Part shown: piece by piece, positions 1 to 44,963 of the stretch
How the letters are laid out: each line of letters opens with the position of its first letter
How positions within the stretch are numbered: the stretch's first letter is position 1
From: Escherichia phage BF9
Direction: 5' to 3' (one strand)
Length of the DNA stretch: 44,963 nt
Sequence record: NC_073083.1
The notes under the pieces: generated by a model
Told to the model about the DNA's origin: nothing
Databases searched by the model: none
What the model saw: the letters and a program-made list of their open reading frames with translations, nothing else
Translations under genes and position numbers: made by a program

Positions 1-1610
1 CCTTCCAGCTTCTCCACTTTCCGCAACAGGTGAACGAAGGCGGCGCACAGATCCATCAACAGCACGTTACTATCGAGAGTCAGCACATCGTCTGTGTACC
101 CGATTTCCTTTCGGTCGATTACAACTTCGTTCCCTTCCTCGTCCACCCCCTTGATATCCTCATAAATGGCATAACCCGGCAGCAAGTGTACGTATTCTGG
201 GTCAATCCTTGCCAGATCCTGTGCGATAAGGCCGTATCGCTGTACGTCCGACTCCTTATACTTGAACATTGCCGGAAGCCATTGACGAACGCGGTTGTAG
301 CTTTCCTCGCCGTCAGTGTATTGGATTTCTTTTTTAAGGTCGCGGTCTGATAGCGGCGCTTTCTGGAACTCGTTAACCGAAGGGTTGCCGCTGGTACCAC
401 TAATCAGCCTTTGGTCTGGCATAAAGCGGAATAAAGCCTCACTGACACCACTTTTCCACACGTGGACGCGGTAGTCTGACAAGTGGGTGTCGCCCGCACG
501 CACAAGTCCTGCGCGTGCCCAGTCTATATACCACCGATGCATTGTATGCCCCACCCAGTTATCTACCCCATACAGCGCGTTTGACAGACTGGTAGAGTTA
601 GCCTCTAATGCCTTTAACACTACTGACTCGCCGCCATTCAGGTGCAGCGCACCCAACTTAACCAAACTATCATCACCAACCCCAAGATTAGTGCGCGCCT
701 CCGCTGCCGTTGTTGCTGCCGTGCCGCCTTTTTCGATGGGTACGGTGTTCTCCGTAGCTACAGACCCCAAACCAAGATTAGCGCGTGCTGCAGATTTATC
801 TGCGACGTCTGCCAGGTTCTGCGACTTCTTCATGAATTGCGTAGGGTCGATCGCGTTTTTGAAGTCTTCGGCTTCATCCCGATACCCCTGCGCGGCATCG
901 CGGGCGGCTTGCGCGTCCGTCTTCGCTGTATTGGCCTGATCTCGAATAACGCCAGTATCAGTCTTAATCTGGTTCGTCTGGTCCTTGATGGTCTGCGTAT
1001 CAGTCTTGATCTGGTCCGTCTGCGTCTTGATGGTATTAGTGGCGTCGTGGATCGCCTGCGTATCCGCCTTAATCTGATTGGTGGCGTCGCGAATACCCGC
1101 CGTCTCGGTCTTGAAGCCTTCGGCCTCATTGCGAAATCCTTGCGCGGCGGCTTCCGATGCGGCTGCTTGTTGTTGCAGGTTGCGCATCTCAACTGGGTCG
1201 ATCTGTTTCATCAACTGCGACAGATAGCCCCATGACATGCCCTGCATAACCTGCCCGTTAGGTAACGTCACTGTGATTTCTTCAGCGTCGCCGAAGATTG
1301 CACGCCAGTTGTTTTCATCTGCAATCATCAAGCGCAATGCTTTTTGGGCCTGTACGGTAACGCCCATCGTTGCCAGTGACATGGTATCGCGCTTAACGCC
1401 ATCCCACGCAAGACCGGTTGCCGTTGGGCCGTCGAACGGTAACACTAGCGTAAGCGCGGTCTCGCTTTCAATGGACGCGATCGCAACCGTGTAAGGCACT
1501 TGCCCCACCACCAGAGTTAAGAAGTCGCCAGCGTTAAACGAGGTAAACGTTGTGCCGACCCCTACAACCGCCTTGCTGTTATTCGTTACGGATAGAGTTC
1601 CCGCTGCCAT
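1..1610 (-). CDS. Tail fiber protein with C-terminal intramolecular-chaperone-like domain; 3' end runs off the window start and is represented again at 44688..44963
   Basis: ATG at 1610..1608 preceded by GAGGA. Hand translation begins MAAGTLSVTNNSKAVVGVGTTFTSF, has a central run of degenerate repeats (IKADTQAIHDATNTIKTQTDQIKTDTQTIKDQTNQIKTD), and ends with SDVQRYGLIAQDLARIDPEYV, which resembles the auto-cleaving chaperone domain of endosialidase-type fibers. Not in the ORF track because the frame has no stop before position 1. Confidence 0.6.
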   Translation of the reverse strand, partial: MAAGTLSVTNNSKAVVGVGTTFTSFNAGDFLTLVVGQVPYTVAIASIESETALTLVLPFDGPTATGLAWDGVKRDTMSLATMGVTVQAQKALRLMIADENNWRAIFGDAEEITVTLPNGQVMQGMSWGYLSQLMKQIDPVEMRNLQQQAAASEAAAQGFRNEAEGFKTETAGIRDATNQIKADTQAIHDATNTIKTQTDQIKTDTQTIKDQTNQIKTDTGVIRDQANTAKTDAQAARDAAQGYRDEAEDFKNAIDPTQFMKKSQNLADVADKSAARANLGLGSVATENTVPIEKGGTAATTAAEARTNLGVGDDSLVKLGALHLNGGESVVLKALEANSTSLSNALYGVDNWVGHTMHRWYIDWARAGLVRAGDTHLSDYRVHVWKSGVSEALFRFMPDQRLISGTSGNPSVNEFQKAPLSDRDLKKEIQYTDGEESYNRVRQWLPAMFKYKESDVQRYGLIAQDLARIDPEYVHLLPGYAIYEDIKGVDEEGNEVVIDRKEIGYTDDVLTLDSNVLLMDLCAAFVHLLRKVEKLE

Positions 1611-1690
1611 AGCTAAATCCTCATAAATTGGTTGCATTCTCGATTGAGCGGTGCAATACTAAAACTCGACCAAATATGGGAGATGATAAC
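1611..1690 (+). promoter_or_regulatory. Candidate promoter for the rightward lipoprotein cassette, containing one TTGGTTGCA motif
   Basis: aaATTGGTTGCATtctcgattgagcggtgcAATACT gives TTGCAT-N17-AATACT, a sigma70-like spacing, immediately upstream of the lipoprotein gene. Confidence 0.35.
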
Positions 1691-1912
1691 ATGAAAACAT
1701 TAATTGTGATTTGTTCGGTTCTTCTGTCCGGCTGTGCGGTAGAACGTAACAACGGCGATTGCATTACGGTAGCTTACGGTAGCTGCATGTTGCGCTACGT
1801 CGATGGGCAAAAAGTGCCTGCCGGAGATGTGGATATGCGCTTCACTGGCCTGTCTTCGGATGCCGACGGCAATTTCTCAGGCACTGTATCAGTTAAATCA
1901 CGGGAGTGGTAA
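1691..1912 (+). CDS. Small secreted lipoprotein (73 aa); possible Cor/Llp-type superinfection-exclusion protein
   Basis: MKTLIVICSVLLSGC has a signal peptide and lipobox (LSGC). Sits next to the tail fiber/J genes on the opposite strand, as cor and llp do in T1- and T5-like phages. Start is the internal ATG of track ORF 1628..1912. Confidence 0.5.
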   Translation: MKTLIVICSVLLSGCAVERNNGDCITVAYGSCMLRYVDGQKVPAGDVDMRFTGLSSDADGNFSGTVSVKSREW

Positions 1913-1914
1913 TT

Positions 1915-2880
1915 ATGGGCGCTGGAATACTTATCGACTACAACGACGGGCGGCCTGTTATGGCGATAACTGCCGGTCTACGCGCTCCGTCATACTGCAC
2001 TACGTTTGATCAACGCTGCCAGTCAGACAAGACGCTGACCATTAACACCCCGCTAACCCCTGGGTCGGATCTTGTCGTTGCGCTCACGCGCCCGGTCGAA
2101 GTGATTGAGGTATTCGACCAAACGCTGGTTCTTCCAGATCCGTTCTACGTGACGTCGGTACAACGCAACGGGGATAGCGGCATTATTCTACGAGGCGCGG
2201 ACGCGTATAACGCATATAGTGGTCTCCCGCAATGGGCGGGGATAATTATGGAAGTGCTGCCGGTTGGGTCGCGCAATGCGGGCTTACTGGTGGCGAACTC
2301 GACTGACTTCACCGCGATATCGAACGTATCCCGGCTTATGACCTGCCGATATGCGCAGCGCGTGCATGTGAACGACAGTATGCCTTTACCGGTGGGTGGC
2401 ATCCCGTTCGCGCGCTGGGATAACGGCAACGTGTCGGTAGGATTTGATGGCAGTAATATCATCGTCCGCAATTCGTCTTATGGCGGGATCGACGACGTAG
2501 GGGCCGAAGTGGACCTGGATTTGGTTATCTTCAATAACACGCCACCATCTCCGGGGACCGGTATAACCATGACGAACAACCAGGGGCAGGTCACGTTCTC
2601 CACCGTGAATAAGCCGTTTGTTCTCAATTCCGTTATTAATATCGGCACTGGTGGTCAGAATATCGGTAACAGCCTCGTACAGCTTTCATATACCGGCGCG
2701 CTCATTGAGAACAACAGCGGATACAACCACGTGAGAATGAACGGAATACGCATGGCAGGCAACGTGGTTAGCGCGGCACGAAATCGCGTGATTGGTAACT
2801 ACTCACGACAGCAATTCCAGATGCCTAACCGCAACATAACCGCACCCACCCCGTTACTCGTCATCCCTAACATGTATTAA
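1915..2880 (+). CDS. Hypothetical protein (321 aa), Gly/Asn/Thr-rich, probably beta-rich; function unknown
   Basis: Track ORF 1906..2880; ATG at 1915 is preceded by GGGAGTGG. Co-oriented with the lipoprotein gene and followed by a hairpin terminator. Confidence 0.5.
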   Translation: MGAGILIDYNDGRPVMAITAGLRAPSYCTTFDQRCQSDKTLTINTPLTPGSDLVVALTRPVEVIEVFDQTLVLPDPFYVTSVQRNGDSGIILRGADAYNAYSGLPQWAGIIMEVLPVGSRNAGLLVANSTDFTAISNVSRLMTCRYAQRVHVNDSMPLPVGGIPFARWDNGNVSVGFDGSNIIVRNSSYGGIDDVGAEVDLDLVIFNNTPPSPGTGITMTNNQGQVTFSTVNKPFVLNSVINIGTGGQNIGNSLVQLSYTGALIENNSGYNHVRMNGIRMAGNVVSAARNRVIGNYSRQQFQMPNRNITAPTPLLVIPNMY

Positions 2881-2906
2881 AAAAGGGGCCGGATGGCCCC
2901 TTCGCA
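2881..2906. terminator. Bidirectional intrinsic terminator between convergent genes
   Basis: aaaaaGGGGCCggatGGCCCCttcg: GC stem flanked by an A-run on one side and T-rich sequence on the other. Confidence 0.6.
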
Positions 2907-2907
2907 T

Positions 2908-5900
2908 TTACCACGTCCCAACTTTCACCCTACCTCCTCCAGGTAATGGCACGTTAATGCCGGTTGCGTCGATCTGTACCGACCCGCCGGAGAAACCGAA
3001 GTTACCAGTGGTCGCGAACAAGTTGCCGCGTACCGTTACGTTGTTGAACTCCGCCCAGCCATCCTTCGCGATACGCCAGCCGCTGCTACCTGGATTCCAG
3101 TTATTCGATTGCAGCGTGTCCGTGATCTGTGCGAAGTTGATGGACGCGTTCTTGATGCGCGCCGTGTCGATGTACACCTGACCGCCGTCAACGATAAACG
3201 CAGACGAAAGTGACCCATTCGACGGGTGCATGATGTAGAACTGGTCCGCCTTGAACGCGATGCTGGATTTAACCGCACCGCCTTCCACCACAACTGAAAG
3301 CTGCATACCGGCATCATAGTAAGTCCCGTTATACGTCACGCCAGCATTAAGGCTGTATGTGGCACTACCGCCAGCATGGTTAAACGAAGACGTCATCTTC
3401 TGCTCGATAGCTGCGGACTGCTGACCGAACTGCGCCGCTACCTGGGTCTTGTACTCCGCCAGCGCTCCCGCTACGTCTGCCGTTGCCGTTTGTACCTGCT
3501 GGATGGCAGCTTCCTGTTCCCCGAACTTAGCGGCAACAGTTTGTTGGTACTGGGCGAACGCTTGTTCGTGCGTGCTTTGCGCGGTCTGCAACGTGTGGAT
3601 CGCCGCTTCCGCATCGTCAAGGCGAGTACCGATCAACGTCTCAAGTTGCGCGACCGCCTTGTGGGCATCCGCCGCCACGTTATACGCTACCTTGATTTCT
3701 GCGTAGATCCCCTGGTACTCGGCGCGGGCGTTAAACAATTGCTGTGCGTCCGTGAGCATGGCTTCATAAATGCCTTGCGGCATGGTGTCGATCGCTTCCT
3801 GGAAGCGTTTACCATCCTCTGAAGTCAAGAACTCGTCGTCCAACCCCTTCATATACTCGTCAACTTTGTCACTCACCTGGCCTTCAAACGGGGCTGACCA
3901 GTCCGACAGGTTGCCGATTTTATCCGCTACGCGGGCGCGCAACTGCTGGTAGATCCCGAACTCCAGCGACGTTTGCGCATAGTCCGATCCCGGATATGGG
4001 ACGTTGGTCAAGAACTTCCATTCCGTTTCGCCCCGCTTGCGCACTTCAAGCTCGGTGTAAGAGATATCCGTCGCGGCGTTGTTGTGGTTCCACTTCCACA
4101 AAATTTGGTGAAGGCCCGAAATCGCGTTGGTGATGATAGGCGCGTTAAGCCCGCCGAGACGACCTTCGATCGGCGTGATGGCAGACGACACCCACGGGGA
4201 TGAAATCTCACCCATACCGATTGCGCGGACGCGTGCCTGGTAGTTACCGGAGAACACGTTAGGGATGTGAGCGCCGTTCGATGCCGTGCGAGGGATGTTC
4301 ACCCAGTCGTTACCCCACTGGATTTCCATATTCTGCAAGCTGGTACGTCGCCACTGGATTTCATATACAACGGCATCCTTCACCGGCGGGAAAACAATAT
4401 CCACGTTGGTGATTAGCTGGCCTTGCGATGAAATCTGCGACGGGGTGATGGTCACGGACTCCGGCCCCTTCATTACGCCGTCAGGTACTTGCGTAAAGAT
4501 GCCTGGGTCAAGGCGAGCGCCATTATCAACGGCATCATATTTGCTATCGTTGTACTCGATCCCGCGCACTGAAAAAGTGCTGGTAGAGTCGTCATATTCC
4601 AGGTCGGTGATGCGGAACTTCTGCAACTGGATATCATCGCCATCAACGCAAAACGGCTGGTCTGGAATCGGGTCGGCGTCCAGTGCGGTTTTTAGCGTAA
4701 CCTTGTTGCCGTTGACGCTGGCGATCTCGCGAGTCTCCACATTACCGCTATCGGTGCGTACCAGGAATTTATCGCCAGGGCGGAACGTGATTTCGCTGTC
4801 TGTGTTCAGCACCGTCCGCGTGCCCGGATCTGACAACAGGCGACCGCCGCGTGTCTCGAAGCCGCCAGAAATGTTTGTATCGGCGATCGCTACTACGCTA
4901 CCCGGAATAAAGAATAGTCCTTCCATGCCAACCTTAAAGCTAACTTGCTGGTCAAGCTGGTTGGAGATTAGCGCCCAGTGCCCCCGGCGTTGCGCTTCTG
5001 ATTCACGCGTACAGCCGATCGCCGTTATATCGAGACGGTTAATCTTATGGCGGCGTACCAGTTCGACACGTTGCCCCGTTGCGATGGCATCCTCATAGTG
5101 GTTCTTCGGGTTGCCGTATGCTACCGCGAACGTGGAATAGCGAGTTTTCTGGCTCCCTGACGCGTAGTCGAATCTGCCATCAATAACAGAGGCGTTGGTG
5201 ATAGTGTGCGATACCGCTGCGACCGGCTGGTCACTTACGATATTCAACATCTGGTTGCCCCACCAGGTCATACCGGCAAAGATGGCGGCTAAATCCTTAA
5301 GCACGGTCCAGGCGTCGGTCTGCGACTGGATGTACATATCATTCTTAAATCGGATTTCCTGCCCGCCGTTGCCGTCGCTGACAAGCTGGTCACAGCGCTG
5401 CGCAATCTGGTAGAGCGCGTACCGGTTCAGCATTTGCGGCTTGATCCTACGACCGAGGCCGAAGCGCTCAGTAATACAAATATCGTACCAGTGCCACGCA
5501 GGGTTGTCCGTCCAGGCGCGTTTAAACGTGCCATCCCAGTCGCCCGAATATGTATGATTAATCGGGTCGTAGTTGTTCGGAACCAGCACTTTGCGGCCTT
5601 TGCACTTGATGGACACCCGAGGGATGTTCTGAAACGCTTTAGCGTCGAACTCCACGAACAACAGCGCGGTTAGCGGGTAGCGCAGGCGGGCGTCGATAAT
5701 CTCAGTGATTGATTGCACCTGAATATCGTTCACCACTTTTGCCGATGTGGAATCAGCCGTTGTGCGGTGCACTTCCACGCGCCAGCCAGTGTTAACGTTC
5801 GGCGGTAACTCGATGCGGTGGTCTCGCTCGTACAGCGACATTGTTTTACCAACGGCAGCAAATGTAAACTCGCGCGGATCTGCGTTATCCGTATACACAA

Positions 5901-6354
5901 CGATTTTATAGTCGATGCGCCCGCCTACCAGGTCGCCATTATCTTCGTTGGTGTACAAAGCCGGAATGCCGATTCGAATGCGCACGGCGTCAAGACTTGT
6001 GTCATTAATCTGGCGCACCCACGGCGTGCCGTTTTCCAGTTTTACGCCTACTGTTTGCTCACTTTCCACCGCGGAAAATCCGTGGATTACATCCTGGTGC
6101 TGTGTGCCTGGGCGGAACTCCACGCGCGCGCCGGGGAAGTTTTCCGACAGGTCGGCGTTCTGGATCGGTGTGCCGTCCAGGTATACGCGCTGCCGTAATT
6201 CGTTAGGGTCGGGAATACCTTCGAATTCCCCTTCACCCAGCGCAAGCAAGATGCGGATTTTAGCCAGGGAATGCAGGCTGTCCGGCGTTTCCTGCGGGGT
6301 GTGCTGTTTGCCTCCGCCGCCTTTATGGCCTGTAACGTCGTAGATAATCGTCAT
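2908..6354 (-). CDS. Central tail fiber / host specificity protein (lambda gpJ-like), 1148 aa
   Basis: Size, position after the K and I homologs, and conserved gpJ-type N-terminus MTIIYDVTGHKGGGGK...LLALGEGEFEG. Confidence 0.85.
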   Translation of the reverse strand: MTIIYDVTGHKGGGGKQHTPQETPDSLHSLAKIRILLALGEGEFEGIPDPNELRQRVYLDGTPIQNADLSENFPGARVEFRPGTQHQDVIHGFSAVESEQTVGVKLENGTPWVRQINDTSLDAVRIRIGIPALYTNEDNGDLVGGRIDYKIVVYTDNADPREFTFAAVGKTMSLYERDHRIELPPNVNTGWRVEVHRTTADSTSAKVVNDIQVQSITEIIDARLRYPLTALLFVEFDAKAFQNIPRVSIKCKGRKVLVPNNYDPINHTYSGDWDGTFKRAWTDNPAWHWYDICITERFGLGRRIKPQMLNRYALYQIAQRCDQLVSDGNGGQEIRFKNDMYIQSQTDAWTVLKDLAAIFAGMTWWGNQMLNIVSDQPVAAVSHTITNASVIDGRFDYASGSQKTRYSTFAVAYGNPKNHYEDAIATGQRVELVRRHKINRLDITAIGCTRESEAQRRGHWALISNQLDQQVSFKVGMEGLFFIPGSVVAIADTNISGGFETRGGRLLSDPGTRTVLNTDSEITFRPGDKFLVRTDSGNVETREIASVNGNKVTLKTALDADPIPDQPFCVDGDDIQLQKFRITDLEYDDSTSTFSVRGIEYNDSKYDAVDNGARLDPGIFTQVPDGVMKGPESVTITPSQISSQGQLITNVDIVFPPVKDAVVYEIQWRRTSLQNMEIQWGNDWVNIPRTASNGAHIPNVFSGNYQARVRAIGMGEISSPWVSSAITPIEGRLGGLNAPIITNAISGLHQILWKWNHNNAATDISYTELEVRKRGETEWKFLTNVPYPGSDYAQTSLEFGIYQQLRARVADKIGNLSDWSAPFEGQVSDKVDEYMKGLDDEFLTSEDGKRFQEAIDTMPQGIYEAMLTDAQQLFNARAEYQGIYAEIKVAYNVAADAHKAVAQLETLIGTRLDDAEAAIHTLQTAQSTHEQAFAQYQQTVAAKFGEQEAAIQQVQTATADVAGALAEYKTQVAAQFGQQSAAIEQKMTSSFNHAGGSATYSLNAGVTYNGTYYDAGMQLSVVVEGGAVKSSIAFKADQFYIMHPSNGSLSSAFIVDGGQVYIDTARIKNASINFAQITDTLQSNNWNPGSSGWRIAKDGWAEFNNVTVRGNLFATTGNFGFSGGSVQIDATGINVPLPGGGRVKVGTW

Positions 6355-43942: not shown

Positions 43943-44518
43943 ATGTACGGCGAATATGAAATATCCGGTAAACAATTCCACCTGGCGGCAATGATCGCAA
44001 GCATCGAGTTTGACCAGTGGCGCTTAAAGTCCGACTCGTGCAAGCAAAGCCGTCTTGTCGGTGTTCTGGGCGAGATGTTTGCAGGTATGTACCTTGAGGG
44101 GCAGGCGGGCGGGCGTAGTTGCATACCGCAAGGCTTACTAATGCGTACCGGCCTGTTTAGCGCCAATACCATCGACCGCGGCGATATTATCATGGTAGGT
44201 AAGCGCAAGGTTAAATCTGGCCCCGACTTCCGCGAGCATGTGGTCGATGCCGTATGGACCTACGAGGTTAAGGCCACCAGCGGCATCCGTCGTGGACTGG
44301 TTGAGGCGCGTTGCGCTCGCGAATATCTGACCCGTCGCGTTGCCGGTGTTATCCTGGTGGGCGTATCGTTCGGGCAACATAGCGCGCACGGCGTGATTGA
44401 GGATATTGCGGAACCATACGTGATTGTGAACGACTGGCCCCTGGTGGAAGTGGAAGGAAAGGAATATTACGAAAGCCCGTTGGTACGGCGTAAAATGGAC
44501 TGGGAAAACTTAAACTAA
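43943..44518 (+). CDS. Hypothetical protein (191 aa), possibly PD-(D/E)xK-like
   Basis: Track ORF with RBS GAGGA; weak D...E-V-K pattern in GDIIMVG...DAVWTYEVKAT; last gene of the rightward block. Confidence 0.45.
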   Translation: MYGEYEISGKQFHLAAMIASIEFDQWRLKSDSCKQSRLVGVLGEMFAGMYLEGQAGGRSCIPQGLLMRTGLFSANTIDRGDIIMVGKRKVKSGPDFREHVVDAVWTYEVKATSGIRRGLVEARCAREYLTRRVAGVILVGVSFGQHSAHGVIEDIAEPYVIVNDWPLVEVEGKEYYESPLVRRKMDWENLN

Positions 44519-44547
44519 AAAAGGGGCCGCATGGCCCATTCTCCTTA
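44516..44547. terminator. Bidirectional terminator between the last rightward gene and the tail fiber 3' end
   Basis: aaaaaaGGGGCCgcatGGCCCattctcc; the minus strand reads GGGCCATGCGGCCCC followed by TTTTTT. Confidence 0.6.
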
Positions 44548-44551
44548 TTTA

Positions 44552-44687
44552 CCTTCCAGCTTCTCCACTTTCCGCAACAGGTGAACGAAGGCGGCGCACA
44601 GATCCATCAACAGCACGTTACTATCGAGAGTCAGCACATCGTCTGTGTACCCGATTTCCTTTCGGTCGATTACAACTTCGTTCCCTT
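44552..44687. repeat. Extra tandem copy of the 136 bp unit that equals window positions 1..136
   Basis: Exact match read directly in the sequence; the next copy starts at 44688. Confidence 0.85.
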
Positions 44688-44963
44688 CCTTCCAGCTTCT
44701 CCACTTTCCGCAACAGGTGAACGAAGGCGGCGCACAGATCCATCAACAGCACGTTACTATCGAGAGTCAGCACATCGTCTGTGTACCCGATTTCCTTTCG
44801 GTCGATTACAACTTCGTTCCCTTCCTCGTCCACCCCCTTGATATCCTCATAAATGGCATAACCCGGCAGCAAGTGTACGTATTCTGGGTCAATCCTTGCC
44901 AGATCCTGTGCGATAAGGCCGTATCGCTGTACGTCCGACTCCTTATCCTTGAACATTGCCGGA
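44688..44963. repeat. Terminal overlap: duplicate of window positions 1..276 (one mismatch, C at 44945 versus A at 258)
   Basis: Read directly in the sequence; encodes the tail fiber C-terminus (track ORF 44621..44956, minus strand). Confidence 0.9.

Follow-up and report, generated by a model that had tools for sequence, protein, structure and literature searches.

The lateral tail fibre protein pb1 of phage T5 carries a chaperone at its C terminus, and cleavage of its Thr1263–Ser1264 bond by Ser1264 and Lys1269 is experimentally established: the serine, activated by the lysine, departs with the chaperone (PMC4690869). The cleaved pb1 tip alone competes with the phage for receptor (PMC4690869), and the processing of both pb1 and the K1F tailspike has been reported (PMC4690869). 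Within Dhillonvirus, Gp29 of phage RuthEpting (Bas85) has been described as an N-terminal coiled coil followed by a T5-like tip with a C-terminal chaperone (PMC11990801), and papers on Dhillonvirus fibres call this domain an ‘intramolecular chaperone’ or ‘IMC’.

Here we analysed 44,963 nucleotides from Escherichia phage BF9 (NC_073083.1), a stretch that we refer to as the window. On the minus strand, the open reading frame starting at 1610 encodes the lateral tail fibre of an Escherichia coli siphophage of the Dhillonvirus type (HK578/JL1-like). Its C terminus is a Peptidase_S74, or endosialidase-type, IMC domain, for which we describe the domain match, the catalytic pair and the predicted fold. 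We are highly confident that the locus as a whole is best explained as a Dhillonvirus-type lateral fibre of four modules, the last of which is a Peptidase_S74 IMC that is predicted to cleave itself off. The literature on Dhillonvirus fibres already contains this architecture (PMC11990801, PMC12309495), and some close homologues in UniRef bear the name ‘Peptidase S74 domain-containing protein’; given both, the finding is already known, although it is real and was correctly interpreted.

The gene begins with an ATG at 1610 on the minus strand and reads without a stop up to window position 3, a total of 536 codons. Its main part (1..1610, minus strand) comprises codons 1–536 and the first two bases of codon 537. 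Because the two ends of the window overlap, the gene crosses the left edge and its end is found at 44545..44551 (minus strand), where the final 7 nt supply the third base of Gly537, Lys538 and a TAA stop codon (44545–44547). The earlier note, which placed the fibre reading frame in 1–1610, was right about the start and the strand but lacked these final 7 nt. The complete fibre has 538 amino acids and ends in ...KLEGK, and all close relatives share this length and ending. A ribosome-binding site, GAGGA, can be read at 1618..1622 (minus strand), 7 nt upstream of the ATG. A sigma-70-like site (ATCACA, a 16-nt spacer and TG-TATCAT) lies at 1683–1710 on the minus strand, approximately 70 nt upstream of the ATG and within the beginning of the divergently oriented lipoprotein gene; it is the sole such site in 1400–3000, where its number is no higher than that expected from shuffled sequence.

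Upstream of the chaperone, the fibre starts with an N-terminal virion-attachment (anchor) domain (1206..1610, minus strand; residues 1 to approximately 135). The N-terminal half that includes the anchor is conserved in every homologue and is shared across Dhillonvirus fibres. Residues 1–73 are similar to PDB chain 23gd_B, a ‘distal tail protein gp20’, and profile positions 1–201 match the N termini of the phage ‘Depolymerase’ chains 7VZ3, 7VYV and 7LZJ (E approximately 1e-14). An AlphaFold2 (AF2) model of the full-length monomer, in which this N-terminal domain has a pLDDT below 50, is usable for domain boundaries only.

A coiled-coil shaft follows (843..1196, minus strand; residues 139–256). 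It contains approximately 16 strict heptads at residues 145–256, of the form [I/F/A/Y]-[K/R]-x-[D/E/Q]-[T/A]-x-x, and the BLOSUM62 self-similarity of residues 145–252 peaks only at lags of 7, 14, 21 and 28 (z = 8.4, 10.9, 7.7 and 5.9, respectively, against 1,000 shuffles). At the DNA level, Tandem Repeats Finder (TRF) reports a 42-nt period in 955–1034 with 89% matches. Residues 139–253 form one helix in the AF2 model, with pLDDT values of up to 94, and the shaft has weak matches to the trimeric coiled coil of Lpp and to the shaft of T7 gp17. The degenerate central repeats pointed out previously, IKADTQAIHDATNTIKTQTDQIKTDTQTIKDQTNQIKTD, are present at residues 180–218 and are heptads of this coiled-coil shaft, with z-scores of up to 10.9.

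Between the shaft and the tip lies a region of AARxNLGLG fibre repeats (630..842, minus strand; residues 257–327) with one full 30-residue unit and a partial one, and these ...A-A-R-x-N-L-G-L-G... repeats match those in the solved fibres 9ZD7 gp92 and 7Z47. The distal, β-rich tip, presumed to be the receptor-binding domain, occupies residues 328–420 (351..629, minus strand), and its strands are modelled by AF2 at residues 338–407 with pLDDT values of approximately 70–85. In a fold search, the tip and the IMC together align to T5 pb1 (4UW8).

The IMC domain itself comprises the last 118 of the 538 residues (421–538; 1..350, minus strand). It stands at the extreme C terminus of the fibre, after the coiled-coil shaft, in a protein that matches tail-fibre PHROGs. 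The Peptidase S74 profile search that had been proposed for this region gave a significant result: PF13884 (Peptidase_S74, ‘Chaperone of endosialidase’) matches residues 421–474 (nt 189–350, minus strand), the Pfam core of the IMC, with E = 5.6e-9 and 36.6 bits, 14 bits above the curated (gathering) cut-off of 22 bits. The match spans profile positions 1–57 of 58 and starts exactly at S421-D-R-D-L-K426. Its first position, Ser421 (codon 348..350, minus strand), is the predicted autoproteolytic nucleophile, and Lys426 (codon 333..335, minus strand), at i+5 from Ser421, is the predicted general base. The earlier claim of an endosialidase-type chaperone domain at the C terminus of the minus-strand fibre is therefore borne out by PF13884, by an invariant Ser/Lys pair and by fold matches to IMC structures alone. 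The C-terminal string quoted in its support, SDVQRYGLIAQDLARIDPEYVHLLPGYAIYEDIKGVDEEGNEVVIDRKEIGYTDDVLTLD, does occur, at residues 454–513, and takes in the latter half of the Pfam core together with the tentacle hairpin, but its opening residue, Ser454, is not the cleavage serine; the conserved serine that had been postulated exists as Ser421 in SDRDLK, 33 residues upstream of the string.

Among 62 diverse relatives, with C-terminal identities down to approximately 20%, S421, K426 and G460 are the only invariant positions of the region, and all three are also invariant in a non-redundant alignment of 13 IMC sequences that are 12–82% identical. The persistence of the Ser/Lys pair across the 62 relatives to such low identity points to selection on catalysis and not on the fold alone. 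Approximately 400 homologues were found, and among the 120 matches listed nearly all carry a precomputed PF13884 annotation.

A search of PDB sequences with the single fibre sequence matched the NLGLG repeats and the N-terminal domain and no IMC structure, so a family profile was needed. We built this profile from the last 128 residues alone, using the 13-sequence alignment, and searched it against PDB chains. It matches the L-shaped tail fibre 8HQZ (E = 2.9e-33), the ICA domain of MyRF (7DC3; E = 3.3e-14), 8JOV (4e-10), the S16-type long tail fibre 6F45 (1.5e-8) and the GA-1 neck appendage (3GUD; E = 2.5e-5). In every solved chain matched by the C-terminal profile, SDxxxK (Ser-x4-Lys) is in register: SDRDLK of the fibre is aligned with SDERLK in 8JOV, SDRRIK in 6F45 and SDERHK in 3GUD.

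In an AlphaFold2 model of residues 316–536 as a monomer (mean pLDDT 79), a mixed α/β core, a long β-hairpin and a long terminal helix follow one another as in published descriptions of the T5 pb1 chaperone. The β-hairpin ‘tentacle’ corresponds to residues 481–505 (nt 96–170, minus strand) and the C-terminal trimerising helix to 22 residues, 514–535 (nt 6–71, minus strand), so that core, tentacle and helix are all present in the monomer model. When this model was compared with the PDB using Foldseek, the best 13 matches were all IMC structures (3GW6, 7DC3, 4UW8 and 3GUD), each with probability 1.0; 11 of the 13 have E-values between 1e-4 and 6e-4, two matches to 3GUD have E-values of approximately 2–3e-2 and the next match is at approximately 1. 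Judged by its sequence and by this predicted fold, the fibre is a regular member of the S74/IMC family in every sequence and fold respect considered.

By analogy with T5 pb1, we predict that the Leu420–Ser421 bond is cut, at the position at which pb1 is cleaved. The bundle of C-terminal helices of the IMC would set the three chains in register, and its β-hairpin tentacles would serve as a template on which the interwoven tip folds. After correct trimer formation, Ser421, activated by Lys426, would attack the Leu420–Ser421 peptide bond. Release of the 118-residue IMC (approximately 13.7 kDa) would leave a mature fibre of 420 residues, approximately 45 kDa per chain, from a precursor of 58.6 kDa, such that the mature fibre would be shorter than the open reading frame. 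This release would also unmask the tip for binding to surface glycans; the roles in trimerisation of the fibre and in exposure of the receptor site are both suggested by the same analogy. In T5 and K1F, the oxyanion hole is completed by an arginine from the neighbouring chain, and cleavage therefore depends on correct trimer assembly; in T5 pb1 this residue is Arg1250, beside the carbonyl of the scissile bond. Two candidates for such an arginine lie upstream of the predicted cut in our fibre, which was modelled as a monomer: one is R395, which belongs to the conserved LFRF motif, and the other is R401. Downstream of the fibre we found no separate fibre-assembly or chaperone gene, in keeping with a built-in chaperone; directly beyond the stop codon lie a likely terminator and a convergent gene.

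The S74-like domain might instead be present but uncleaved, remaining on the virion for good as a cap or trimerisation knob at the distal end of a full-length fibre. We consider this improbable. Cleavage of this particular fibre is predicted by analogy, and the details of the cut do vary in phi29 and other variants (PMC4690869), but a Ser/Lys pair that stays invariant in 62 relatives down to approximately 20% identity argues against a domain that is only structural. Moreover, among the members treated in PMC4690869, T5 pb1 and the K1F tailspike are processed, and the uncleaved T5 form was unable to compete for receptor (PMC4690869), which is difficult to reconcile with a permanent cap. We found no published demonstration of fibre processing in Dhillonvirus. 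In the virion-lysate proteome of the Dhillonvirus EE09, the fibre of that phage has been detected with 14 peptides and 34% coverage, reported as counts without peptide positions and hence uninformative about processing.

The genomic context identifies the protein that carries this chaperone. The window is as large as a complete Dhillonvirus genome and shares approximately 91% DNA identity with coliphages of the Dhillonvirus type, among them vb_EcoS_bov22_1, Pandora71 and JL1. The fibre matches PHROG 1980 ‘tail fiber protein’ (E = 2.8e-129), has homologues of 538 amino acids that are 94% identical in phage contigs of approximately 44 kb, and its gene is syntenic with that for the ‘putative tail fiber protein’ of Pandora71. 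The gene order runs from gpJ through an oppositely oriented pair of genes, for a lipoprotein and a DUF6453 protein, to the fibre and then to convergent replication and modification genes. Pandora71 and two metagenomic contigs share this order exactly, and both this position and the anchor are those of a Dhillonvirus lateral fibre. The gpJ homologue (1,148 amino acids; 2908–6354, minus strand) has Phage_Tail_Tip and FNIII-A_GpJ domains and its own downstream locus of the receptor-binding protein (RBP) type. The phage lipoprotein (PF24052; 73 amino acids; 1691–1912, plus strand) has the lipobox LSGC, and the DUF6453 protein (324 amino acids) is encoded at 1906–2880 on the plus strand. The BASEL papers treat this lipoprotein/DUF6453 locus as a bona fide terminal receptor-binding module, and its products have been proposed to be overlooked receptor-binding proteins (PMC12309495). 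The counterpart of the PF24052 lipoprotein in phage EE09 is annotated as superinfection exclusion.

Homologues in JL1, UAE_MI-01 and mckay are named ‘putative tail tip protein’ in databases, a name that would place the protein on the tail tip, as its central, terminal receptor-binding protein, and not in a lateral fibre. This assignment is very unlikely: the window already encodes a separate gpJ homologue at 2908–6354 with its own RBP-type locus, and the BASEL papers place binding to the porin receptor on the gpJ/RBP locus (the central fibre) and the interaction with surface glycans on this gene, as the lateral tail fibre. In addition, an anchor, a long coiled coil, a T5-like tip and an IMC together constitute a lateral-fibre architecture. 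Finally, the idea that the C-terminal resemblance is due to chance or composition (for example, a coiled-coil-like terminal helix), with the fibre relying on a separate chaperone, could appeal to the single-sequence PDB search that returned no IMC structure and to a Pfam model of only 58 positions, but it is effectively refuted by a Pfam match located N-terminal to that helix and 14 bits over its curated cut-off, by profile and fold searches that both reach IMC structures only and by the lack of a candidate chaperone gene after the fibre gene.

Relatives of this lateral fibre with near-identical anchors and tips range from 424 to 598 amino acids, and their lengths differ only in whole heptads (steps of 7, 14, 21 or 42+ residues) or in 30-residue NLGLG units (NLGLGSVATENTVPIEKGGTAATTAAAARS), which are present in 0–3 copies across relatives. 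We speculate, as a tentative idea that is more likely wrong than right, that the shaft is a rapidly adjustable length ruler, with the reach of the tip tuned by recombination or slippage between repeats; if so, reach would be matched to O-antigen or capsule layers of differing thickness.

The distal cassette of the fibre is mosaic. From approximately residue 255 onwards (window 1–850), the protein shares approximately 90% identity with the fibre of Shigella phage SH6, which is T1-like and whose fibre has an unrelated N terminus, and the IMC part shares 57–61% identity with the L-shaped tail fibres found in T5-like phages of Salmonella. The closest alleles of the tip are in vB_EcoS-UDS3lw, SSL-2009a, the bov phages and Pandora71. 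In some Dhillonvirus fibres, a PF25670 (Phage_tail_C_2) end replaces S74 in the same gene slot, indicating that the distal cassette moves between phage families. The tip and the IMC are evidently exchanged as a cassette between Dhillonvirus, T1-like and T5-like phages. A downstream chaperone gene for the PF25670-type fibres that lack S74 was looked for by synteny and not found; this test has no discriminating power because the gene order is identical for S74 and PF25670 fibres.

At the other end of the window, a G+C-rich hairpin of five pairs with T-runs on both strands (44524..44537) lies between the fibre stop codon and a convergent open reading frame of 191 amino acids (43943–44518), the end of which faces the fibre stop across the hairpin. 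The hairpin is likely to be a bidirectional terminator common to both. Beyond the fibre end, 44552..44963 (minus strand) consists of redundant copies of the 3′ end of the gene: 44688–44963 repeats window 1–276 with one mismatch, and 44552–44687 is an additional tandem copy of window 1–136, with junction microhomology of 3 nt (CCT). The 136-nt unit is single-copy in relatives. These ends are consistent with a 276-nt overlap plus one extra 136-nt tandem unit. A plain wrap-around with a 412-nt overlap was considered and rejected, as the ends match over 139 nt only. The sole difference between the terminal copies, A at 260 versus C at 44947, turns Tyr451 of the fibre into Asp; this residue is Tyr in 14 of 14 aligned close relatives, and the difference may reflect either variation in the population or an error in sequencing.

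The tandem duplication is probably an assembly artefact rather than real. Reading the contig as a wrap-around gives a genome of 44,687 bp, in which the fibre ends in ...KLEG followed by RERSCNRPKGNRVHRRCADSR and a stop codon instead of in ...KLEGK. Were the unit real, a 21-residue frameshifted tail would replace Lys538 on the chaperone that is predicted to be discarded, and, as a further speculation, a discarded domain of this kind could accommodate superfluous sequence at its 3′ end, of which the 136-nt duplication at the right end would be an example. No tRNA or tmRNA genes were found in the whole window using ARAGORN.

For annotation, the virion fibre would be residues 1–420 rather than 1–538, given the predicted cleavage. 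Recombinant receptor-binding constructs are predicted to require the chaperone domain for folding and to lose it afterwards, and host-range swaps should move the tip and the IMC as a single cassette. The value of the result lies in annotation and engineering; the understanding of the S74/IMC family is unchanged.

The founding member of the S74/IMC family is the IMC of the K1F endosialidase endoNF (3GW6; PF13884 / MEROPS S74), which shares the profile and the predicted fold with our fibre at approximately 12–14% identity in structural alignment, but its passenger is a tailspike, with a sialidase β-propeller and a triple β-helix stalk, and not a fibre tip. MyRF ICA (7DC3), from a eukaryotic transcription factor, and the GA-1 neck appendage IMC (3GUD), from a Bacillus podophage, have only the self-cleaving trimerisation module in common with the fibre. 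Fibres of the T5 pb1 / LtfA type (4UW8 and 8HQZ) are more similar: like ours, they are siphophage lateral fibres in which a small distal tip is followed by a C-terminal S74 IMC, and the Ser/Lys pair has the same i,i+5 spacing (Ser1264/Lys1269 in pb1 versus Ser421/Lys426). The T5-type proteins are longer, at 1,076–1,396 amino acids compared with 538, and our fibre differs from them in its N-terminal anchor and in having a simple heptad coiled-coil shaft. The tips are loosely similar, with a TM-score of approximately 0.45 on the monomer model, and pb1 binds polymannose O-antigen. The Bas85 Gp29 and JLBYU60 fibres share with ours the same genus-level context and, by published description, the same order of modules; they differ in the allele of the tip.
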